Shown: piece by piece, positions 1 through 33,580 of the stretch
Position numbering within the stretch: position 1 is the stretch's first letter
Layout of the letters: the number at the start of each line of letters is the position of its first letter
NCBI GenBank assembly: GCA_963821585.1
Contig: CAWGEI010000005.1
Coordinates: 6,603-70,602, forward strand
DNA length: 64,000 bases
Origin: an uncultured Acidobacteriota bacterium
Lineage (GTDB): Bacteria > Acidobacteriota > Thermoanaerobaculia > Gp7-AA8
Reading direction: 5' to 3'
Program-made: the position numbers and the translations under genes
The notes under the pieces: generated by a model
The model's input: the letters and a program-made list of their open reading frames with translations, nothing else
Told to the model about the DNA's origin: nothing
Database searches by the model: none

Positions 1-348
1 GGCGTCGCGGCGTACCCAGGTCTTGCCGCCGTCGGCCGACATCGCGATCGCGCCGCCGCCCCACAGCCCCCACGCCGCCGCCCAGAGCTGCCCCTTCCCG
101 TCGAGCACGAGGTTGTCGACGACGTAGCCCGGGAAGGGGATGCCGTTCCGTGGCGACGTCCAGCTCTTCGCGCCGTCTCGGGAGACGTACACCTCACCGC
201 CGCTGGTGCCGAGGTAGAGGGTGTCCGGATCGCGCGGATCGACGATCAGCGCGCGGGTGTCCGCACCGTGCAGACCGGCCCTGCGCCATTGCGCCGCGGC
301 GGGAAGGGTGACGAGAAGGATCGCGAGGAGAATGAGGAGTTTACGCAT
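1..348 (-). CDS. BNR/Asp-box repeat (sialidase/Ycf48-like beta-propeller) secreted protein, N-terminal part; the gene runs off the left edge
   Basis: Not in the ORF track because it is truncated. Hand translation of the reverse strand from ATG (rc of 346-348) gives MRKLLILLAILLVTLPAAAQWRRAGLHG...GGEVYVSRDGAKSWTSPRNG...AMSADGGKTWVRRD. It has a signal peptide plus two S-x-D-x-G-x-x-W Asp-box motifs. Confidence 0.75.
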   Translation of the reverse strand, partial: MRKLLILLAILLVTLPAAAQWRRAGLHGADTRALIVDPRDPDTLYLGTSGGEVYVSRDGAKSWTSPRNGIPFPGYVVDNLVLDGKGQLWAAAWGLWGGGAIAMSADGGKTWVRRDA

Positions 349-423
349 GTCGGCCGTGTTCAGGATGTTTTACCACAGGCGGCCTAAGCAAACGGTCGGC
401 CACGCTGTTATTCTTCGCGGCCG

Positions 424-1287
424 ATGAACACCCTCCGGACGTGCGTCTTCCCCTGCGCGGGCTTCGGGACCCGCTTCTTTCCCGCCACGAAGGTCATCCC
501 GAAGGAGATGCTGCCGCTGGTCGACAAGCCGATCCTGCAGTACGGGATCGAGGAGGCGCGCGACTCCGGGCTGGACAAGCTGATCATCGTCACGTCCAAG
601 GGGAAGGACACGATCCTGGACCATTTCGACCGCACCGCGGAGCTCGAGCGCTCGCTGCAGGAGCGGGGGAAGAACGACCTGCTGGCGGAGGTGGACAACG
701 TCAGCCGCATGGTCGACCTCATCTCCGTCCGCCAGAAGGAAGCCCTCGGCCTCGGCCACGCGGTGCTGACCGCGAAGGACGCGGTGGGCGACCACCCGTT
801 CGCGGTCGTGCTGCCGGACGACGTCATCCTGGCCGAGGAGCCGTGCCTGCTGCAGATGCGGCACGTGTTCGAGGAGACCGGGCGTCCCGTCGTGGCGCTG
901 ATGGAAGTGTCGCGCGAGGAGACGTCGCGCTACGGCATCGTCGCCGGAGAGCTGGTCGGCGAGCGGCGGTTCCGGATCACGGACATGGTCGAGAAGCCGA
1001 AGGTCAAGCCACCGTCGCAGTACGCGATCATCGGACGCTACATCCTGCCGCCGGACATCTTCCCGCTGCTGGAGAAGACCGAGCGCGGCGCGGGCGGCGA
1101 GATCCAGCTCACGGACGCGCTGCGCGAGCTGGTGCGCACCGGGGACTTCTACGGCTACGTGTTCAAGGGGCAGCGCTACGACGCCGGCGAGAAGCTCGGC
1201 TACCTGAAAGCGACCGTCGACTACGCGCTGCGGCACCCGAAGCTCGGCAGCGAATTCCGCGAGTACCTGAAGACCGCCGTCTCGTGA
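424..1287 (+). CDS. galU: UTP--glucose-1-phosphate uridylyltransferase
   Basis: 287-aa ORF. The N-terminus CVFPCAGFGTRFFPATKVIPKEMLPLVDKPILQYGIEEA and the motif VLPDD are typical of GalU. Confidence 0.93.
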   Translation: MNTLRTCVFPCAGFGTRFFPATKVIPKEMLPLVDKPILQYGIEEARDSGLDKLIIVTSKGKDTILDHFDRTAELERSLQERGKNDLLAEVDNVSRMVDLISVRQKEALGLGHAVLTAKDAVGDHPFAVVLPDDVILAEEPCLLQMRHVFEETGRPVVALMEVSREETSRYGIVAGELVGERRFRITDMVEKPKVKPPSQYAIIGRYILPPDIFPLLEKTERGAGGEIQLTDALRELVRTGDFYGYVFKGQRYDAGEKLGYLKATVDYALRHPKLGSEFREYLKTAVS

Positions 1288-1742
1288 AAGACCCCGATAA
1301 GCACCTCGACAGGCACCTCGACGTACTGGACCTGCCCGAAGACCTGCGCGACCTGATTCGCGAGTGCGCGGCGAAGGGCACACGCACGGTATTCGAGCGC
1401 AACCGCCGCCCGGTGGCGGCACTGGTCTCGTACGACGAGTACATGGCCCTGCGCGAGACGATCGAGATCGCGAACGACTCCCTGCTCTTCGCCAAGATCG
1501 CCGAAGCGGACGACGAGGAGGTCGAGCAGCGCGGGAAATACGAGCGGTTGCGCTTCGCGAAATCCGCCGCACCGATCTACGACGCCGCGCTGCGCCGCAT
1601 CGAGCTCGACCCCATCGTAGGCGCGCCGCTGTTCGAACCGCTGAAGGGACTGTGGAGTTACCGGACCGAGGAGCTGCGGATCATCTACAAGATCGTCGCG
1701 GAGGCGAAGATCGTGGTGATTCTGCACGTCACGAAAATGTAG
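1284..1742 (+). CDS. Single-polypeptide fusion of a Phd/YefM-like antitoxin and a RelE/ParE-like toxin
   Basis: GTG at 1284 overlaps the galU stop (GTGA). The N-terminal half, RTVFERNRRPVAALVSYDEYMALRETIEIANDS, is Phd/YefM-like. The C-terminal half, RLRFAKSAA...LKGLWSYRTEELRIIYKIVAEAKIVVILHV, is RelE/ParE-like. No stop codon separates the two halves. The TAG stop lies inside the family-1 repeat. Confidence 0.7.
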   Translation: MKDPDKHLDRHLDVLDLPEDLRDLIRECAAKGTRTVFERNRRPVAALVSYDEYMALRETIEIANDSLLFAKIAEADDEEVEQRGKYERLRFAKSAAPIYDAALRRIELDPIVGAPLFEPLKGLWSYRTEELRIIYKIVAEAKIVVILHVTKM

Positions 1743-1800
1743 GGCGTGGCTTCAGCCCGCCCCCCCACGGGAGAGGCGGGCTGAAGCCACGCCCTACGTT
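1737..1800. repeat. Family-1 inverted-doublet (REPIN-like) element, copy 1
   Basis: Arms GTAGGGCGTGGCTTCAGCCCGCC / GGCGGGCTGAAGCCACGCCCTACGTT around a 14-nt loop. Confidence 0.9.
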
Positions 1801-1816
1801 CCTATAAACTCGCGAC

Positions 1817-2404
1817 GTGAAATTCATCCTTGCCTCGGCGTCGCCGCGACGGCGCGAGTTGCTGGCCTCGATCGGGCTCGAGTTCGAGGTCCGGCCGAGT
1901 CATGTGCCCGAGATTTATCGGGAGGGCGAGGCGCCGGCGGAGTATGTGGCGCGGCTGTCGCGGGACAAGGCGAACGCGCTGGCGACGGAGCATCCTTCCC
2001 GCTGGGTGATCGCCGCGGATACCACTGTCCTCCTCGGCGACGAGCTGCTGGAGAAGCCTGTCGATTCCGCCGATGCCGCGCGCATGCTGGGCACGATCGC
2101 GGGGAAGACGCACGTCGTGTACACCGGCGTCACGCTGCAGAACCTGGAGCGCGAGCACCACGACACGCGCGTGGCGGAGTCCGAGGTGCGGATGCTGCCG
2201 CTTTCGGCGGAGGAGATCGAGTGGTACGTTGCCACCGGCGAGCCGCTCGACAAGGCCGGTGCGTACGCCGTCCAGGGTATCGGCGCGATGTTCATCGATT
2301 CCATCCATGGCAGCTACACGAACGTAGTCGGACTGCCGCTTGCTACGCTTTTTCAGATGCTCAGAACAGCGGGCATCGACCCTCTTATGGAGCCTAAACC
2401 ATGA
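1817..2404 (+). CDS. maf: Maf-like nucleoside triphosphate pyrophosphatase (septum formation inhibitor family)
   Basis: 195 aa. ILASASPRRRELL...VIAADTTV...KAGAYAVQG matches Maf family signatures. Confidence 0.9.
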   Translation: MKFILASASPRRRELLASIGLEFEVRPSHVPEIYREGEAPAEYVARLSRDKANALATEHPSRWVIAADTTVLLGDELLEKPVDSADAARMLGTIAGKTHVVYTGVTLQNLEREHHDTRVAESEVRMLPLSAEEIEWYVATGEPLDKAGAYAVQGIGAMFIDSIHGSYTNVVGLPLATLFQMLRTAGIDPLMEPKP

Positions 2405-3948
2405 CGTCTGCAGCAAAAGTCGGCATCGTGATGCTGATCGCCCTGGCCGTTCTCGGATACTTCGTCCTCCGCATCGAGGACATCAGCCTGAGCCGCTCGA
2501 AGACCACGCACGTCGTGAAGGCGGTCTTCGACGACGTCGCCGGTCTCGACGACGAGTCGGCGGTGCGCATCGCCGGCGTCCGCAAAGGGCACGTGACGGA
2601 CATCAAGGTCCTGCCCGACGGCCGCGCGGTGGTGACGATGCAGGTGGACGACGACGTGCCCCTGCACACCAACGCGCAGGCGAAGGTGGCGAACCTCGGC
2701 CTCCTCGGTGAAAAGTACATCGAGCTGGATCCCGGATCAACGCAGGCTCCGGTGCTGAAGACGGACGGCGAGATCGAGCTGCCGGGGACGCAGCCGGCGA
2801 GCTTCGACGACGTGACGGACCAGGTCAAAGCCATCGCGGACGACGTGAAGGCGATCACCGAGTCGCTGCGCGCCGTCGCGGGCGGCCCGACGGGGCAGCA
2901 GCGCCTCGACGAGATCGTGGAGAACGTCCGCGTGATCACGGCGGAGACGCGGGCGCTGATCGCAGCGAACCGCAACAACGTGGACGCGACGCTGGAGAAC
3001 ACCCGCATCATCACCGAGCATCTCCGCAACGAGATCCCGCGCCTGGCGGAATCGATCGACCGCGTCGCGAAGCAGATGGGCGGAACGGTCGGCGAGAACC
3101 GCGAGGATGTACGCGTCGTCGTGCAGAACCTGCGCGGCCTCTCCTCCGACCTGCGCACGACGGCGGACAACCTGAACGCCATCACGGGCAAGGTGAAGAG
3201 CGGCGAAGGGACCGTGGGCAAGCTGTTCTACAGCGACGAAGCGCACGACAAGCTCACCAGCGCGCTGTCGTCCGTCGAAGGCGGCGTGAAGTCGCTGCAG
3301 GAGACCCTCGGCCGCGCCACCCGCATCCAGATGGACCTGGGCATCCGCGCGGATTACTACGCGGGGCTGTCCCAGCAGAAGATCGCGGGCATCGAGCCGA
3401 AGGAGTTCGGCTCGGGCAACTCGCGCAGCGCGGTGGGCCTGCGGCTGATCCCGAACCCGGACATCAACCGTTTCTACAACATCGAGCTGAGCGACGACCC
3501 GCGCGGGAAGCGGCGCGACAAGGTGAACGTCGAGACGCGCACGAACCCGGCCACTGGGCAGAGCGAGACCATCGTCACGGAGACGAGCCGCTACGAGCGC
3601 GACTTCCTGATCTCGGGTCAGGTCGGCTGGCAGCTCGACCCGGCGCTGGCAGTCCGCGTGGGACTGTTCGACAGCACCGGCGGCATGGGCGCGGACTACC
3701 GCCTCAACGACCGGCTCGTGGTGACGGGCGAAGCGTTCGACTTCGGCCAGCGCCGCGACGACAACCCGCACCTGCGCCTCTACGGCGAGTACACGGTCCG
3801 GAAGGAGAAGCCGCGCACGCCGCGCCTCTTCGTCACGAGCGGCATCGACAACGCGCTCAACGACACGGCCTTCACGTTCGGCGGCGGGCTGCGGTGGAAG
3901 GACGAAGACCTGAAGTACTTGCTGGGATCGATTCCCCTCGGAAAGTAG
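2401..3948 (+). CDS. MlaD/MCE-domain protein with a long C-terminal extension
   Basis: 515 aa. There is an N-terminal TM helix, then an MCE fold (VKAVFDDVAGLDDESAVRIAGVRKGHVTDIKV...ANLGLLGEKYIELDPG). The C-terminal half is rich in beta-strand-like segments. Confidence 0.85.
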   Translation: MTSAAKVGIVMLIALAVLGYFVLRIEDISLSRSKTTHVVKAVFDDVAGLDDESAVRIAGVRKGHVTDIKVLPDGRAVVTMQVDDDVPLHTNAQAKVANLGLLGEKYIELDPGSTQAPVLKTDGEIELPGTQPASFDDVTDQVKAIADDVKAITESLRAVAGGPTGQQRLDEIVENVRVITAETRALIAANRNNVDATLENTRIITEHLRNEIPRLAESIDRVAKQMGGTVGENREDVRVVVQNLRGLSSDLRTTADNLNAITGKVKSGEGTVGKLFYSDEAHDKLTSALSSVEGGVKSLQETLGRATRIQMDLGIRADYYAGLSQQKIAGIEPKEFGSGNSRSAVGLRLIPNPDINRFYNIELSDDPRGKRRDKVNVETRTNPATGQSETIVTETSRYERDFLISGQVGWQLDPALAVRVGLFDSTGGMGADYRLNDRLVVTGEAFDFGQRRDDNPHLRLYGEYTVRKEKPRTPRLFVTSGIDNALNDTAFTFGGGLRWKDEDLKYLLGSIPLGK

Positions 3949-5031
3949 ATGATCCAAGTCATCCTCCTCTTTGGCGGAAGGTCCGCCGAGCACGAAGTCT
4001 CGATTCTGTCCGCGCGGTCGGTGGTGAAGGCCGCGCCGGCGGACCGCATCACGTTCACGCCGATGTGCATCGCACGCGACGGGAGGTTCGTCGCGCCGGA
4101 GCGCAGCGCGCGGATTCTGGAAGGCGCGGAGAAGAGCGTCGAAGGCGACGCGGATTTCTCGTTCGAGATCTGGTCCCGTACCGCGACGATCGACCTGGTC
4201 TTTCCGCTGATCCACGGCACGGGCGGCGAGGACGGCGCGCTGCAGGGCTATCTGGAAATCCTCGGGCTGCCGTACGGCGGCAGCAGCGTCACCGCGTCGG
4301 CCGTGGCGATGGACAAGGTCCACATGAAGCAGGCGTTCGCCGCGGCGAAGCTGCCGATGGTGGATTTCGTTCCCGTGCAGGAACACGACTGGCGGAACGA
4401 GCGCGAGCGCGTCGTGCGCGCGGTGACCAACGCGCTGCGGCTGCCGTATTTCGTGAAGCCCGCGAACACCGGCTCGTCGGTGGGTGTCACGAAGGTGAAG
4501 AACGACAAGGACCTTGCGACGGCCATGGACCACGCGTTCCGGTTCGACGAGAAATTGCTGATCGAGCGGGGAGTGGACGCGAGAGAGATCGAGGTCTCGA
4601 TCCTCGGCAACGAGACGCCGCAGGGATCGGTGCCGGGGGAGATCGTCGTGGGCCGGGAGTTCTACGACTACACGGACAAGTACGTGGAGAACAAGTCCTC
4701 CCTGGTCATCCCGGCGAAGCTGGCGAGCGACAAGGCGGCGGAGATCCAGCGACTGGCAATCGCCGCGTTCAAGGCGGTCGGGGCGTCGGGGTTCGCGCGC
4801 GTGGACTTCTTCCTCGAGCGGGGCACGAACCGGCTGTACCTGAACGAGATCAACACCATCCCTGGATTCACGAACATTTCGATGTACCCCAAGCTGTGGG
4901 AAGCGACGGAGCTGAAGTACCCCCGGCTGATCGAGCGCCTCATCACCCTCGGCATCGAGCGCTCCAAGGCGCGCAAGGCGCGCGGGGAGTCGACGATGCG
5001 CTGGTTCGACGAGGTGGCGCCGATTACGTAG
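3949..5031 (+). CDS. ddl: D-alanine--D-alanine ligase
   Basis: 360 aa. LLFGGRSAEHEVSILSA, HGTGGEDGALQG and EINTIPGFT are Ddl motifs. The stop TAG lies in ACGTAGGGCG, a family-1 repeat terminus fragment. Confidence 0.93.
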   Translation: MIQVILLFGGRSAEHEVSILSARSVVKAAPADRITFTPMCIARDGRFVAPERSARILEGAEKSVEGDADFSFEIWSRTATIDLVFPLIHGTGGEDGALQGYLEILGLPYGGSSVTASAVAMDKVHMKQAFAAAKLPMVDFVPVQEHDWRNERERVVRAVTNALRLPYFVKPANTGSSVGVTKVKNDKDLATAMDHAFRFDEKLLIERGVDAREIEVSILGNETPQGSVPGEIVVGREFYDYTDKYVENKSSLVIPAKLASDKAAEIQRLAIAAFKAVGASGFARVDFFLERGTNRLYLNEINTIPGFTNISMYPKLWEATELKYPRLIERLITLGIERSKARKARGESTMRWFDEVAPIT

Positions 5032-5043
5032 GGCGCGTGTGTC

Positions 5044-5213
5044 CTGTCGCCCGCTACGCGGGCTCGTTCCAACGCCCGCTTCGTGTTCCCCCGGCTGAAG
5101 CCGGGGGCTATTTTCTGGCAGCCCGCTACGCGGGCAAGAGGCAATAGACCCCGGCTTCAGCCGGGGGAACGAGCGCGCGACGTTGGATCGAGTCCGCGTA
5201 GCGGGCGGCAGAC
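5044..5213. repeat. Family-2 nested composite palindrome, copy A
   Basis: Layout is CTGTCGCCCGCTACGCGGGCTCG ... CCCCCGGCTGAAGCCGGGGGCTATTTTCT ... GCCCGCTACGCGGGC ... AATAGACCCCGGCTTCAGCCGGGGG ... CGAGTCCGCGTAGCGGGCGGCAGAC. Confidence 0.9.
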
Positions 5214-5294
5214 AACGCGTGTTTGGAGTGCGGATCAGCTACCATCGCGCGATCGTGCCCATCAGCGCAGAATGAAGTCCACCGCCCCCTGATC

Positions 5295-6938
5295 ATGTGG
5301 CCCCTTCGCATCGCCGCTGCGCGGCTTCGTCCCTTCAACGCCTCCACGTTCATCCGCACGGGGATCGTGCTGGTCGTCGTCGCGGCGTTCCTCGTCGGCG
5401 ACTACGCGCTGTTTGCGCGGCTCTTCGGCGCGATCGCGGGCGTCGAGTCGGAGACGCCGCTCTTTGCCCTCGGCCTGCTCCGCAACCTGCTCGGGCTGGT
5501 GTTTCTCGTCGCGACGGTGACGCTGTTGTCCTCCGCGATGGCGGCGGCGATCGCGTCGTACTTCACGGACCTCGATCTCGACATCTACCACGCCGGTCCG
5601 CGGTCGAAGCTGCGCATCGCCCTCTCACGGTGGCTGAAGACGCTGGTGCAGAGCGCGACGGTGGTGTTCCTATTTCTCGTGCCGCTGATCGTCGCCTTCG
5701 CGCGCCAGTACGACAAGCCGTTCGCGTTCTATCCCGCCGTGCTGGTGAACCTCGCGCTGCTGCTGACGATCCCGGTGACGCTGGCCTCGATCGTCATCCT
5801 GATGCTCGTGCGCTGGTTTCCGGTGCGACGGGTCTACCAGATCGTGGCGTCGATCGCCGTACTCGTGCTGACGCTGGTCGTGATCGCGTTCCGCATGAGC
5901 CGGCCGGAGCGCTTCTTCGCCGAGCTCTCGACGATTGACGTGGCCGAGGTGCTGCGGGCGATCGAGCTGCCTTCGATGAGCATCTATCCGAGCACGTCGC
6001 TCGCGGAACTGATGACGCGCAGCGATGCAGCGCCGTTCGCGCCGCGCATCGTGCTGATCGCGCTGATCGCGTTCATGGCATTCGCGGTGCTGGCGCGGGC
6101 GTGGTACTTCCGCGCGTTCGTGCGGGCGCGGGAGAGCATGGCGCCGGCGGCGATCGGGGCGTCGTCCGCGACGCGCATCCTGGACCGGCTCTTCGCGCGC
6201 GCGGACCCGCCGCTGCGGGCGATGATCGGCAAGGAAGTGCGCACGATCGGGCGCGACGTCGCGCAGTGGTCGCAGGTGTTCCTCATGGGCGCGCTGCTGT
6301 TCATCTATCTCTACAACATCCGCATGCTGCCGCTGGGCGGCGACGCGCGCGCGACGCTGGTGGCGTACGCGAACCTCGGCATGTCGGGCTTCGTGATCGC
6401 GGCGATCTGCCTGCGTTTCGCGTATCCGTCGGTGTCGGCGGAGGGGAAGGCGTTCTGGCTGATCCAGAGCGCGCCGATCTCGTACCGCGACTTCCTGCTG
6501 GTGAAGGTCGCGGTCTACGCGGCGCCGCTGACGCTGCTCTCGCTGCTGCTCACCGCGTTCGCGAATTTCATCCTCGGCGCGAACGCGGTGGTGTGGACGT
6601 TCACGCTGGCGGGCGCGCTGCTGCTGGCGGTGACGCTGGTGAGCCTGGGCGTGGGCCTCGGCGCGCTCTCGCCGGACTTCAACGCGGAGAATCCGCTGCA
6701 GGTGGGGCTGTCGCTGGGAGGATTCGGCTACATGGCCATTTCGCTCGCGTACGTCGCGGCGGTGATGGTGCTGATGGCCCGTCCGGTGATGAGCTACTTC
6801 CTGCGCGTGGTGGGCGTGGAGCAGGCCGCGATCTCGGCGACGATCCCGATCGTGATTGCGCTCACGTTGTCCGCGCTGCTATCGGTGATATCTCTGCTGG
6901 CAGCGGAACGCCGCCTCACCCGCTTCAAAAGCGATTAG
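5295..6938 (+). CDS. Polytopic membrane protein (10 or more predicted TM helices; ABC-2/'putative ABC exporter'-like)
   Basis: The ORF is open from 5223, but the upstream part reads through the repeat. The ATG at 5295 (MWPLRIAAARL...) is the more likely start. The sequence is hydrophobic throughout. Confidence 0.75.
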   Translation: MWPLRIAAARLRPFNASTFIRTGIVLVVVAAFLVGDYALFARLFGAIAGVESETPLFALGLLRNLLGLVFLVATVTLLSSAMAAAIASYFTDLDLDIYHAGPRSKLRIALSRWLKTLVQSATVVFLFLVPLIVAFARQYDKPFAFYPAVLVNLALLLTIPVTLASIVILMLVRWFPVRRVYQIVASIAVLVLTLVVIAFRMSRPERFFAELSTIDVAEVLRAIELPSMSIYPSTSLAELMTRSDAAPFAPRIVLIALIAFMAFAVLARAWYFRAFVRARESMAPAAIGASSATRILDRLFARADPPLRAMIGKEVRTIGRDVAQWSQVFLMGALLFIYLYNIRMLPLGGDARATLVAYANLGMSGFVIAAICLRFAYPSVSAEGKAFWLIQSAPISYRDFLLVKVAVYAAPLTLLSLLLTAFANFILGANAVVWTFTLAGALLLAVTLVSLGVGLGALSPDFNAENPLQVGLSLGGFGYMAISLAYVAAVMVLMARPVMSYFLRVVGVEQAAISATIPIVIALTLSALLSVISLLAAERRLTRFKSD

Positions 6939-6976
6939 AATCGAACCGCCTGAAGACAATCCGGCAAGGAGAAGAA

Positions 6977-7408
6977 ATGACCGCTATTCCTCCGCCCACG
7001 GTCCCCCCTGTGACTCCTCCGCCACCGGGAGGCGGGTCGTACACTCCGCCGCCCCCACCGCCACCGGGCGGAGTCAGCCCCAGCTCCGACCGGACGCTGA
7101 TGATCGTGCTCTCATACCTCGGCCTGCTCGCTCTGATTCCGTATCTGACGAAGAAGGAAGACGCCGAGATCCACTGGCACGCGAAGAACGGCGTGGGCCT
7201 GCTAATCCTCGATGTGGTGGTCGGGGTCGCCCTGTTCGTCCTCGGCATGATCATCAATCAGGTAGGCATTCCCTGTGGCTCGTTGGCCGTGAGCTGCATC
7301 GTCTGGATCGGCATCCTCGTCCTGCACGTTTACTGCATCACCCAGGCGGTCGGCGGAAAGCGTCCGCGGATCCCGGTCGTGACCGACTTCGCCGAGAAAT
7401 CGCTCTAA
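6977..7408 (+). CDS. Pro-rich N-terminus plus DUF4870-like 3-TM membrane protein
   Basis: ATG at 6977 is preceded by AAGGAGAAG. Sequence: MTAIPPPTVPPVTPPPPGGGSYTPPPPPPPGG...LMIVLSYLGLLALIPYLTKKEDAEIHWHAKNGVGLLIL. It is embedded in the longer spurious ORF 6101..7408. Confidence 0.8.
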   Translation: MTAIPPPTVPPVTPPPPGGGSYTPPPPPPPGGVSPSSDRTLMIVLSYLGLLALIPYLTKKEDAEIHWHAKNGVGLLILDVVVGVALFVLGMIINQVGIPCGSLAVSCIVWIGILVLHVYCITQAVGGKRPRIPVVTDFAEKSL

Positions 7409-7418
7409 GGTAGATCGG

Positions 7419-7739
7419 ATGTCCGACTCCACGCCACCGTCCCCACCACCCGCCCCCGCCGGTCCCGGCGGGGGTGGTCTCGTCTATCCGGCCAATCCGC
7501 CGAAAGACCCGGTTCTGATTCTCATCCTGAACCTAGTCTTCGGAATCGGGTACATCATGATGGGCCAGAAGACGAAAGGGATCGTCGCCATCGGTGCTTT
7601 CTGGGTGGTGACGTTCGCAACGTGCGGCCCGGGGAGCATCATCGCCGCGTTGTATGCGATCGACGGCTACCTGCAAGCGCAGCAGCTCCAGCAGGGACAC
7701 CCGGTCGGCGAGTGGACGTTCTTCAACGACCATCGGTAG
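7419..7739 (+). CDS. Pro-rich N-terminus plus TM2-like small membrane protein
   Basis: 106 aa: MSDSTPPSPPPAPAGPGGGG...LILNLVFGIGYIMMGQKTKGIVAIGAFW...YAIDGYLQAQ. Confidence 0.75.
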   Translation: MSDSTPPSPPPAPAGPGGGGLVYPANPPKDPVLILILNLVFGIGYIMMGQKTKGIVAIGAFWVVTFATCGPGSIIAALYAIDGYLQAQQLQQGHPVGEWTFFNDHR

Positions 7740-9565: not shown

Positions 9566-9648
9566 AACGTAGGGCGTGGCTTCAGCCCGCCTCTCTGGTC
9601 GAAACCCCCGCCCACGAGGGGAGGCGGGCTGAAGCCGCGCCCTACGTT
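9566..9648. repeat. Family-1 inverted-doublet (REPIN-like) element, copy 2
   Basis: AACGTAGGGCGTGGCTTCAGCCCGCC ... GGCGGGCTGAAGCCGCGCCCTACGTT with a 31-nt loop. Confidence 0.9.
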
Positions 9649-19706: not shown

Positions 19707-20947
19707 GCCGCCCAGCCGTCGTCCTCCTGCTCTGCTGCACGCTCCTCGCGTGCCGCGAGGACGCGCCTCCTCCCGCCGCCGCCAAAGCACCCGCGCCGCC
19801 CGCGCGCATCGCGGCGACGCCGGACAATGACTCCGACAACTCGTTGAATCTCATGTACGGCGCCGCGGTCGTCTCCCGCACCGGCGAGCTGCACCTCGAA
19901 AACTCTGCCGTCCACACGATCGACGGGTTCGCCGAGACCATCTGGATGTCCGCGCCCGGCGTGCCGGAAGAGATGCTGGTCTATTCGATGCTCGCGCCCA
20001 CGCGCCTGCAGCGCGTCGGCATCAGCACCCACAGCGGCGACGACGCGGTGGACAGCGTCGCCTTCGCCGCGTCGATGGACGGGAAGACGTGGACGGATCT
20101 CGGCACGCTGAAAGCCACGCGCACGGACGAGCGGCAGTTCCTGGACGTGAAGCCGACCGTCGCGCACTACCTCCGCGTCCGCACGATCGATCCCGCGGGG
20201 CGCTACTACGTCCGCCTGCGCGGTGTCCACGCGATCGGCGAGGAGGTAGCGGCGCCGAAGACACCGTCGTTCAGCGGCTGCTGGATGATCAACGGGGAGC
20301 GCGCGCACCTGGAGCAGCACGGTGCGCGCATCACGGGCGTGATCGAGAGCGATCCGCCGGCGTACATCGACGGCGGCACGGACAACCGCGCGGGGATGAT
20401 CATGTGGATGCGCGGTCTGACGTGGGGCTACGCGGTGATCACGCGCTCGCCTAACGGAGAGCATCTCTCGGGGTTGAGCTTCTTCGAGGAAGTAGACAAG
20501 AACATCGGCGAGGGGTGGTTCGGGGAGAGATGTAACGTAGGGCGTGGCTTCAGCCCGCCCTCCCCGGGGGCGGGCGGGCTGAAGCCACGCCCTACGTTGT
20601 TCTTCGCTCGCGCGAAGCGGTATTCGCTGTACGGGCTGGTCTTCGATGCGAACGACCGGCTCGTCGAGGAAGTGAGCGAACCGACGCTCGATGTCCTGGC
20701 CTCGCTGATCGCCTCTGCGTCGCAGCCGATGCGGCTCGTCGCGCGCGAGCTGCGCTACACCCCCGAGCAGAACCGGCAGCACGCGGCGGCGCGGCTGCAG
20801 GCGATCCGCGCCGCACTCGAACGGCGCGGGGTGAACCTCTCCCGGATCGAGTTCGTCAACGCGGGCGGCGACACCGGCGGAATCGTCCTCCGCTCTTCCC
20901 TTCAGCGAGCGCTCCTCAGCCGCGTCGACCTCGTTTCTGGGACATAA
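19703..20947 (+). CDS. Lipoprotein with a discoidin (F5/8 type C)-like domain and a degenerate OmpA-like C-terminal domain; carries an in-frame family-1 repeat
   Basis: GTG at 19703 overlaps the glyS stop. Lipobox LLAC is present. ...[38 protein letters not shown] is discoidin-like. The frame stays open through the repeat ([23 protein letters not shown]). Confidence 0.75.
20534..20598. repeat. Family-1 inverted-doublet (REPIN-like) element, copy 3, located inside the CDS
   Basis: AACGTAGGGCGTGGCTTCAGCCCGCC ctccccgggggcg GGCGGGCTGAAGCCACGCCCTACGTT. Confidence 0.9.
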
Positions 20948-24884: not shown

Positions 24885-24945
24885 AACGTAGGGCGTGGCT
24901 TCAGCCCACCTTTTTGGACGGCACGCTGTAGCCACGCCCTACATT
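24885..24945. repeat. Family-1 element, copy 4 (degenerate right arm)
   Basis: AACGTAGGGCGTGGCTTCAGCCCACC ... GCTGTAGCCACGCCCTACATT. The inner part of the right arm is missing. Confidence 0.7.
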
Positions 24946-32683: not shown

Positions 32684-33523
32684 TTGAAGGAACCAACCAA
32701 AATCCGCATCGGCCCGGCGGGCTGGAGCTACAAAGATTGGGAAGGCGTCGTCTACCCGTCGCACGGTTCGAAGTTCGACGCACTCGGCTATCTCGCGCAG
32801 TTTTTCGACACCATCGAGATCAACTCGCCGTTCTATCGCATCCCTCCGCCGACACACTCGAAGAGCTGGGTGAAGCGCGTCGCCGTGAACGACAATTTCA
32901 AGTTCACGACGAAGATCTATCGCGGCTTCACGCACGAGACCGAGGCGCTGTCGAAGGATGACGTGCAGGCGTTCCGCAACTACCTCGACCCTCTCATGGA
33001 AGCCGACCGCCTCGGCGCGATCCTCATCCAGTTCCCGTGGAGCTTCAAGAACACGCCCGAGTCCCGCGCGAAGCTCGTCAAGCTCTTCGGCGCCTTCAAG
33101 GACTACCCGCAGTCCCTCGAAGTACGGCACTCGACGTTCCAGGTGCCGGAGCTCTACGAGCTCCTGGACGAGCACGACGTCGCCTGGGTGAACGTCGACC
33201 AGCCGCTGTTCAGCGACTCCGTGAAGCCGGCGGACACGGTGACCGGTCCCGTCGCGTACGCGCGCTTCCACGGACGCAACTACGAGAAGTGGTTCGCGCA
33301 CGACGAATCGTGGGAGCGCTACAACTATCTCTACTCCGAGCGGGAGCTCGCGCCGTGGGTCGAGCGCATCGAGCGGATGGCGAAGAAGCGCGACACGTAC
33401 GTGATCACCAACAACCACTTCCGCGGCCAGGCCATCCTGAACGCGGGCGACCTCAAGGAGTCGCTGGGCCAGGACGCAACGCTGCCTCCGCAGTTGAAGG
33501 AGGCCTACCCCGACCGGACGTAG
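32684..33523 (+). CDS. DUF72 (UPF0759/YecE-like) protein
   Basis: 279 aa. IRIGPAGWSYKDWEGVVYP...FDTIEINSPFYR is the DUF72 signature. The start is TTG. The stop TAG lies inside the family-1 repeat. Confidence 0.88.
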   Translation: MKEPTKIRIGPAGWSYKDWEGVVYPSHGSKFDALGYLAQFFDTIEINSPFYRIPPPTHSKSWVKRVAVNDNFKFTTKIYRGFTHETEALSKDDVQAFRNYLDPLMEADRLGAILIQFPWSFKNTPESRAKLVKLFGAFKDYPQSLEVRHSTFQVPELYELLDEHDVAWVNVDQPLFSDSVKPADTVTGPVAYARFHGRNYEKWFAHDESWERYNYLYSERELAPWVERIERMAKKRDTYVITNNHFRGQAILNAGDLKESLGQDATLPPQLKEAYPDRT

Positions 33524-33580
33524 GGCGTGGCTTTAGCCCGCCTCCCCCGGGGGAGGCGGGCTAAAGCCACGCCCTACGTT
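33518..33580. repeat. Family-1 inverted-doublet (REPIN-like) element, copy 5, with a compensatory arm substitution
   Basis: ACGTAGGGCGTGGCTTTAGCCCGCC tcccccggggga GGCGGGCTAAAGCCACGCCCTACGTT. Confidence 0.9.

Follow-up and report, generated by a model that had tools for sequence, protein, structure and literature searches.

YefM-fold antitoxins dimerise and bind operators, and in toxin–antitoxin (TA) systems of the RelBE and YefM-YoeB types the complex T-A2-T (T, toxin; A, antitoxin) is the repressing species. The usefulness of chromosomal type II TA modules to the cell is the subject of a long-running argument. In a survey of 195 fused genes (Gerdes, mBio 2025, PMC11980606), Phd/YefM-YoeB fusions numbered five in prokaryotes and two in eukaryotes; examples are PID41999.1 (148 amino acids, aa) and BBX74620.1 of M. 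shinjukuense (179 aa), and such proteins were predicted to form YefM-mediated dimers and to act as operator-binding transcription regulators. Other single-polypeptide TA systems include EzeT of E. coli (PMC4826407) and CapRel (PMC13423816), as well as a HicA-HicB fusion, Slr1999 of Synechocystis, for which no fused homologue was reported in other organisms (PMC4963859). We analysed a stretch of 64,000 nucleotides (nt; hereafter ‘the window’) from an uncultured Acidobacteriota bacterium of the Thermoanaerobaculia (contig CAWGEI010000005.1), and describe a gene located between galU and maf (hereafter X) that encodes a Phd/YefM-like antitoxin segment and a RelE/ParE-like toxin segment as one protein. 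The fused architecture is itself already known; what is new is that the fusion is fixed, syntenic and part of the core genome across a lineage, that matched split and fused orthologues occupy one locus, and that the fused domains have been trimmed. We consider it somewhat probable that X encodes a functional, vertically inherited single-chain derivative of a RelBE-type module, which would be domesticated and neutralised in cis rather than a releasable poison.

The X reading frame runs from GTG1284 to TAG1742 and its product reads ...RTVFERNRRPVAALVSYDEYMALRETIEI...RLRFAKSAAPIYD...ILHVTKM. As an earlier reading of the letters alone (the sequence-only reading) had proposed, the antitoxin-like and toxin-like parts form one polypeptide, encoded in a single 152-aa open reading frame (ORF) that carries both Pfam domains, and its start overlaps the galU stop codon as GTGA. 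Among 5.8 billion proteins searched, 344 were homologous to X and had the same architecture. Of these, the top 120 are 141–157 aa long (all but one 144–157 aa) and 75–96% identical to the query over 88–100% of its length, and those with a named source come from metagenome-assembled genomes of Thermoanaerobaculia. Exhaustive searching of 1.84 billion cluster representatives with a profile yielded about 17 remoter full-length fusions (137–176 aa, 28–61% identity), together with free antitoxins of ~87 aa and free toxins of ~85–92 aa. The close fused form is present in 13 species-representative genomes, all of them Thermoanaerobaculia. Searches of sequencing runs gave partial DNA matches only, to soil metagenomes (at most 26% of words), and no RNA runs; searches of viral contigs and plasmids gave no relatives. 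The fixed syntenic site and the lack of viral or plasmid matches differ from the mobile or patchy distribution of canonical type II TA modules. X is a real, well-conserved gene of soil Thermoanaerobaculia that encodes a single antitoxin–toxin protein.

Both halves of X are under purifying selection, at the level of the neighbouring housekeeping genes. Pairwise Nei-Gojobori dN/dS values over 14 loci were 0.18 for the whole gene, 0.22 for the antitoxin core, 0.16 for the linker and 0.15 for the toxin-like part, compared with 0.11 for galU, 0.16 for maf and 0.26 for mlaD. The longest invariant runs lie in the toxin-like half (...LRFA.S..P..DA.LR.IELDPI.G.PLFEP.KGLWS.R...LR..Y.I..EA..VV.L), and an alignment of 30 homologues contained no internal stops or frameshifts. 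The sequence-only reading had suggested that the gene might be a neutralised TA remnant, with its 3' end clipped by a repetitive extragenic palindromic (REP) element. A remnant of this kind, decaying and without a function of its own, would account for a toxin-like domain with both ends shorter than in canonical RelE/ParE proteins and for a stop codon that comes from the REP element; it does not account for hundreds of intact full-length homologues, and the REP element removed only 0–8 variable residues. Since dN/dS is low in both halves, decay is excluded, and we regard this explanation as highly improbable.

The domain assignments were obtained from several independent profiles. The Pfam antitoxin family PhdYeFM_antitox (PF02604) matched residues 20–78 of the whole protein with E 6e-7 and 29.5 bits, just under the cut-off of 29.8, and the N-terminal half by itself scored 31.2 bits (E 1.8e-7). 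ParE_toxin (PF05016) matched residues 88–150 over profile positions 19–83 of 89 (E 2e-4; 22.1 bits for the whole protein), and the C-terminal half by itself passed the cut-off of 23 bits only marginally, at 23.3 (E 9.5e-5). NCBIfam returned weak phd_fam, YoeB and RelE_StbE matches only; the match to TIGR01552 was weak (18.9 bits; cut-off 20.8). A profile built from the family itself matched both partners of two M. tuberculosis systems, namely RelB1 (9g12_C, E 4.6e-9) and RelE1 (9g12_A, E 4.6e-5), and Rv2865 (3g5o_A, E 1.4e-6) and Rv2866 (3g5o_B, E 9.6e-7), in addition to the YefM chain 2a6q_A.

The final AlphaFold2 (AF2) model, computed from a 73-sequence alignment, had a mean predicted local distance difference test score (pLDDT) of 89.3 and a predicted template modelling score (pTM) of 0.76; an earlier model from a shallow alignment of 30 near-identical sequences (pLDDT 45) was discarded. 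In the antitoxin domain the model contains a helix (residues 19–31), two strands (35–39 and 42–47) and two further helices (50–63 and 66–76). This agrees with the strand-helix-strand-strand-helix fold of the Phd/YefM N-terminal domain, with the expected first strand (LDVLDL, residues 12–17) not called, and Foldseek matched the domain to 9g12_C and 3g5o_A. The RelE-fold domain is modelled as a four-stranded sheet (strands 89–92, 123–127, 131–138 and 143–151) on which a single helix (101–108) is packed, so that the sheet of the RelE/ParE fold is present with one helix instead of the two-helix hairpin. The junction between the domains is short, compact and confidently structured, with pLDDT values of 87–96 over residues 61–100.

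The best match of the model in the PDB was RelE2 (3g5o_B; E 2e-4, probability 1.0, TMt 0.67, 31% identity), followed by RelE1 and then by T. thermophilus RelE, A. tumefaciens YoeB/ParE, HigB2 and E. coli RelE; a search against viral structures gave no match below E 1e-2. The PF05016 match, the profile matches to RelE1 and RelE2 and this structural match together bear out the proposed RelE/ParE likeness of the C-terminal part. Two narrower identities were considered. We rejected a ParE-like gyrase poison, as ParE structures come far down the ranking and the top matches, in sequence as in structure, are of the RelE type. The protein also falls outside the YoeB/Txe family, scoring 16–18 bits against a cut-off of 51.8 on TIGR02116 and 13.4 against 27 on PF06769, and it lacks the H-Y tail.

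Comparison with related genomes pointed to the origin of the fusion. A normal two-gene module is found at the same locus in three separate lineages (L020, L024/L025 and L026/L027; loci and proteins used in the comparison are cited by L and P numbers), in each of which two adjacent cistrons stand where the window has one ORF. In all three the two genes overlap by 11 nt: the antitoxin ends ...LPEDL(F/L)(V/G)E-TGA, with the TTG start of the toxin inside this segment, and the GGAGGA that encodes P-E-D is also the Shine–Dalgarno (SD) sequence of the toxin, 6 nt before the TTG (~8 nt in L020). One short stretch of the split orthologues, the LPEDLF codons, therefore encodes the neutralising tail and supplies the toxin's ribosome-binding site and start. 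Free antitoxins from the wider search have related ends (P0161, ...VLPEDLFVE; P0146, ...LLVEDLLEIE; P0163, ...LLGEDLVDE).

At the position of the window's junction, split relatives read ...(A/M)(I/M/L)LPEDLF(V/G)E and a stop that overlaps the TTG start of the toxin, as in L026, where ...VKRGAIMLPEDLFGE ends in a stop and the toxin begins (M)GNDRIRI.... The window's clade reads ...VEQRG|KYERLRF..., the bar marking the junction, and relative to the split forms it lacks about 10 C-terminal antitoxin codons, the stop codon, the GGAGGA sequence and the toxin start. This missing stretch accounts for the fusion, as expected of a deletion. On these alignments, X is descended from a bicistronic module at this site, with an antitoxin of ~89 aa and a toxin of ~88 aa. 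It had been anticipated that related genomes might have a normal two-gene module, with the present copy simply carrying a mutated stop codon. The first part was found; the second was not, because the state seen in the window is a clade-wide fusion mediated by deletion. The presence of two genes at this locus in related genomes would also be compatible with an assembly or sequencing artefact, or with a mutation private to this copy, but the fused frame recurs in independent assemblies from NCBI, JGI, ENA and Logan, and what sets the junction apart from the split form is a deletion of several codons, not a point change. We consider that explanation barely conceivable.

Fusion appears to have taken place more than once. 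Other fused lineages retain an EDLF-like motif and carry varied linkers (P0126, ...WDDLFDGRRDRIRI; P0127, ...PEELFGLEGQFGNDRLRL; also P0139 and P0131), and since these linkers differ in length, the lineages concerned seem to have fused independently. A neighbour-joining tree of Maf mixes split with fused loci: the sister of the window's fused clade is L026, which is split, and L017, a fused locus, has the split L020 as its sister. One further protein, P0121 (176 aa), combines the N-terminal half of the close clade with a long linker and a full helical hairpin; it looks intermediate, which suggests that fusion came first and the trimming of one toxin helix later.

The sequence-only reading had attributed the shortness of the toxin part to clipping by the REP element. 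Canonical stand-alone relatives end ...VRHRKDVYRL (P0194), ...VGNRRDVYR (P0255) or ...IKHRKDVYRDMLRR (P0187), and the motif (H/N)R(K/R)D(V/I)Y is missing from the whole syntenic family, split or fused. Unfused toxins of the family also lack this tail (P0154, the split toxin of L026, ...AIARVGDQQLR; P0156, ...KIERVESSVSETWSR; P0162, ...RISDAGEEKAAMT), so the short C-terminus is a trait of the family and not a product of the REP element. For comparison, the solved RelE2 and RelE1 chains extend 6 and 11 residues, respectively, beyond the aligned core. In E. coli RelE two residues with a part in catalysis, R81 and Y87, lie in the C-terminal tail, and the missing C-terminal Arg/Tyr motif suggests that nuclease activity may be attenuated in this family. 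A second truncation lies within the domain: in the window's clade the helical hairpin is 11 residues shorter than in split toxins and in the long fusion P0121, and the AF2 model consequently shows one helix rather than two.

The REP element does supply the stop codon of X. The palindrome is predicted to form a hairpin of -61.8 kcal/mol (z = -12), and five copies are present in the 64-kb window where 0.03 are expected by chance; as a short, GC-rich, multi-copy, intergenic palindrome it has the properties of REP elements. The consensus arms are AACGTAGGGCGTGGCTTCAGCCCGCC ... GGCGGGCTGAAGCCACGCCCTACGTT, with one copy having a longer loop and one being degenerate. At the left edge the consensus reads AACGTAGGGCG and the window copy AATGTAGGGCG, a comparison that identifies the REP element as the source of the TAG; the stop thus lies in the left arm, as had been noticed from the letters alone, and the Met152 codon probably comes from the same element. 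Because the palindrome is missing from the orthologous loci L002, L003, L005 and L007 (alignment of 3' ends), it is an insertion. Sub-threshold Rfam matches of the palindrome to miRNA hairpins (31 and 28 bits, cut-offs 99 and 86; positions 1–3000 searched) were set aside as chance matches.

The effect of this insertion on the protein is slight. All 30 aligned members end 0–8 variable residues past a conserved ...VV(I/V)L.(I/V).R, three of them (P0073, P0110 and P0120) at exactly the position of the window protein, and the window has Lys at position 151, where at least 90% of relatives have Arg. Clipping did occur, then, but is trivial, and by this alignment the insertion replaced at most a few non-conserved end residues. 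The 74-nt gap between X and maf, with its very stable hairpin, takes the place of an ancestral stop/start overlap, and, judged from the aligned loci, the main consequence of the insertion is the separation of X from maf. The closest relative, L021 (protein 96% identical), carries a different, GT/CA-rich palindromic insert of ~130 nt at the same place (L021 1398–1529); Uma2-like ORF fragments occupy the junction in L022 (1758–2103) and L023, and inserts of 0.35–3.2 kb are found there in L004, L006 and L012 (L012 ~4424–7657). By this comparison the X–maf junction (window 1743–1816) is an insertion hot spot.

The fusion might still yield two proteins, if free toxin were made from an internal start in addition to the full-length chain, restoring a two-protein system. 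TTG1548 is, as previously noted, the only candidate for such a start and has no SD sequence before it, the ancestral GGAGGA having been deleted. Split relatives do start the toxin with TTG, but TTG1548 is not at the ancestral toxin start position, and it is replaced by CTG, CTC or CTT in 11 of 14 relatives. Lack of conservation and lack of an SD sequence make a separately translated toxin unlikely, and we give this possibility very little credence.

The reading of X as a domesticated, cis-neutralised protein entails the following mechanism. By analogy, the N-terminal Phd/YefM-fold domain would provide dimerisation and DNA binding, and two copies of the fusion protein would pair into a homodimer that corresponds to the T-A2-T complex of the RelBE and YefM-YoeB types. 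With a covalent 1:1 fusion, a T-A2-T-like complex would form constitutively and leave no pool of free toxin. The RelE-fold domain would be held permanently in cis, probably with weakened nuclease activity, and the gene may be kept for a non-lethal role, either as a fixed-stoichiometry repressor of the galU-X-maf-mlaD-ddl operon or as a ribosome- or RNA-binding factor. The losses of the antitoxin's neutralising tail, a toxin helix and the catalytic tail, combined with the lack of a flexible linker, argue that release of a poison is not the selected function.

The strongest competitor is a live, cis-inhibited toxin comparable to EzeT, CapRel or the YefM-YoeB mono-gene modules, which would be freed by proteolysis of the N-terminal domain or by a phage or stress trigger. 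The toxin-like half is, after all, the best-conserved part of the protein, with the lowest dN/dS and the long invariant runs. It also keeps the Rv2866-like positions S125, R127, R132 and Y135 in strands 2 and 3 and is basic (net charge +4, pI 9.6), although net charge did not discriminate as an indicator of ribosome binding. Fused TA genes are on record for this superfamily, some of them acting in defence (PMC11980606, PMC4826407, PMC13423816). Against a live toxin, the window's clade has lost the C-terminal LPEDLF segment of the antitoxin and one toxin helix by deletion, there is no C-terminal Arg/Tyr motif, and the AF2 model contains no disordered linker to cleave. The site is moreover core, syntenic and non-mobile, with no defence-island context, and no PADLOC defence-system model matches the gene. 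Proteolytic release, which the sequence-only reading had also entertained, is possible but disfavoured by the model, because the junction is short and confidently structured. We consider a live toxin unlikely, though a serious contender.

Several points weigh against the domesticated, cis-neutralised protein that we prefer. R127 and R132, the equivalents of basic beta-sheet residues in Rv2866, are conserved. RelE-superfamily active sites are highly variable, so that a missing Arg/Tyr tail is no proof of lost nuclease activity. We saw no conserved operator palindrome upstream of galU, where only a −10-like box is common to the loci and the remainder is variable or filled with repeats. The number of fusion events is provisional, because the Maf tree is based on one short protein. 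Finally, the function given here to the fusion protein is inferred.

The surroundings of X are strongly conserved. In all sufficiently long loci the order is aldolase, hypothetical gene, BNR/sortilin gene (minus strand), galU, X, maf, mlaD, ddl and ABC_tran_2; it is seen in full in L001, L017 and L019, from galU onward in L021 and L022, which cover only that part, and in part in the short contigs L015 and L016, which are consistent with it by BLAST of their flanks. L001, L015, L021 and L022 have the galU/X overlap of 4 nt as well. At the other end, the X stop overlaps the maf GTG as GTGA in L002, L008 and L009; a 4-nt X/maf overlap is also found in L017 and L019, and GTGA or ATGA overlaps with maf in L020 and L026, while X and maf are spaced by only 10–40 nt in L003, L005, L007, L010 and L011. 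Overlaps on both sides in relatives indicate that X was ancestrally coupled to the genes on both sides. galU is present in L024/L025 and in every fused locus; in the split loci L020 and L027 it is absent upstream, and the gene next to the module on that side lies on the opposite strand. More loci therefore have the module linked to maf than to galU.

From this context we tentatively propose, with less assurance than for a domesticated protein as such, a longer history. A RelBE-type module may have entered, long ago, a core operon for envelope and cell-division functions in Thermoanaerobaculia and been domesticated there repeatedly by independent fusions, its RelE-fold domain losing the nuclease tail and no longer needing an antitoxin that can be released. 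The new role of that domain might be that of a built-in co-repressor, with the operon's repressor fixed at 1:1 stoichiometry, or of a non-cleaving ribosome or RNA sensor linking translation status to the supply of envelope precursors.

Table 1. Features of the X locus in the window, and the split orthologous modules with positions in their own loci
Feature	Position	Strand	Basis or remark
galU, UTP-glucose-1-phosphate uridylyltransferase, NTP_transferase family	424..1287	+	287-aa ORF; upstream operon gene
X, antitoxin–toxin fusion gene, single ORF	1284..1742	+	152 aa plus TAG; GTG start
GTGA overlap of X start and galU stop	1284..1287	+	sequence reading
12-nt tandem repeat AAGCACCTCGAC/AGGCACCTCGAC	1299..1322	+	within lineage-specific 8-codon N-terminal extension
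Phd/YefM-fold antitoxin domain	1341..1517	+	residues 20–78; Pfam PF02604, profile matches, AF2 model
Fusion junction R83-G84-K85-Y86-E87-R88	1530..1547	+	alignment of split and fused forms
RelE/ParE-fold domain	1545..1733	+	residues 88–150; Pfam PF05016, profile matches, Foldseek
TTG (Leu89), sole candidate internal start	1548..1550	+	not conserved as a start codon
REP/REPIN-like palindrome, 31-nt arms, 3-nt loop	1736..1800	.	between X and maf
REP family copies	1736–1800, ~9566–9648, ~20534–20598, ~24885–24945, ~33517–33580		aligned consensus arms
maf, nucleoside-triphosphate pyrophosphatase family	1817..2404	+	gene downstream of X
Split module, L020	4742–5273		89-aa and 90-aa genes directly upstream of maf; no galU
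Split module, L024/L025	L024 3748–4267		galU, then 87-aa and 88-aa genes; next maf (L025), next called gene mlaD (L024)
Split module, L026/L027	L026 117–642		91-aa and 86-aa genes, then maf in L026; downstream gene cut off in L027

A few further features of the window deserve mention. Orthologues of galU are 85–97% identical, and relatives carry PF00483. The −10-like box (window ~400–423) lies 9–12 nt before the galU ATG (TATTCT in the window, TATCCT in most of L002–L014), a position that suggests a leaderless or near-leaderless galU mRNA; further upstream the sequence is variable among relatives. The N-terminal 8-codon extension of X is otherwise found only in P0002, with part of it also in P0053, most relatives beginning V/M-K-R-L-D-V-L-D-L straight at the GTG, and residues 1–10 are modelled with a pLDDT of 55. 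Minus-strand ORFs at 370–1572 and 1221–1727 were taken to be high-GC artefacts on account of plus-frame conservation and low dN/dS.

The locus amounts to a natural experiment, in which an orthologous module at one housekeeping site is split or fused according to lineage and has apparently been fused more than once. Selection that persists after the loss of the neutralising tail, a toxin helix and the catalytic tail is the pattern expected of TA domestication, and matched split and fused orthologues would allow it to be tested directly. There is also a consequence for annotation. NCBI/nr records that carry a name are called ‘Phd/YefM family antitoxin’ or ‘hypothetical protein’, and only JGI names mention RelE. 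With the toxin half at or below the Pfam cut-off, and PF05016 listed in the precomputed Pfam column for 2 of the 120 homologues shown, screens based on Pfam domains would miss the toxin domain of these genes.

The closest solved relatives of X are the M. tuberculosis systems RelBE2 (Rv2865/Rv2866, 3G5O) and RelBE1 (Rv1247c/Rv1246c, 9G12). Each half of the window protein matches its counterpart in these complexes, with a Foldseek probability of 1.0 and 23–31% identity, and the order, antitoxin then toxin, is the same. The M. tuberculosis systems consist of two proteins where the window has one chain; the RelE1 and RelE2 chains run 6–11 residues past the aligned core, at the end of which the window family stops; and in the window's clade two elements are gone, a helix of the toxin hairpin and the C-terminal segment with which the antitoxin wraps around the toxin. 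The REP element likewise resembles REP/REPIN elements in being a multi-copy, ~65-nt, GC-rich, perfect intergenic hairpin, and differs from them in that its left arm enters the 3' end of a coding region and supplies the stop.

In architecture, the nearest counterparts are the Phd/YefM-YoeB mono-gene modules, in which an N-terminal YefM domain is followed by a BECR-fold toxin in one ORF of ~150 aa. By combining a DNA-binding antitoxin domain with a BECR-fold toxin domain in one ORF, the window protein falls into the class defined by Gerdes, and it aligns collinearly with PID41999.1 along 115 residues (23% identity, E 1e-4). PID41999.1 is however a YoeB-family protein that ends ...MWTHYE, whereas the window protein has no such tail and scores 16 bits against a cut-off of 51.8 on the YoeB model. 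The linker of the M. shinjukuense fusion was reported to be unstructured (PMC11980606), in contrast to the compact junction of our AF2 model. The tables of that survey contain no Thermoanaerobaculia entry, and the published Phd/YefM-YoeB fusions are few, while the window fusion is a clade-wide, syntenic core gene. The toxins of EzeT, CapRel and Slr1999 (a zeta kinase, a toxSAS and a HicA, respectively) are unrelated to the toxin-like domain of X. For EzeT and CapRel, toxicity and triggers have been demonstrated. Unlike Slr1999, for which no fused homologue was reported elsewhere, the fusion described here is fixed across its lineage.

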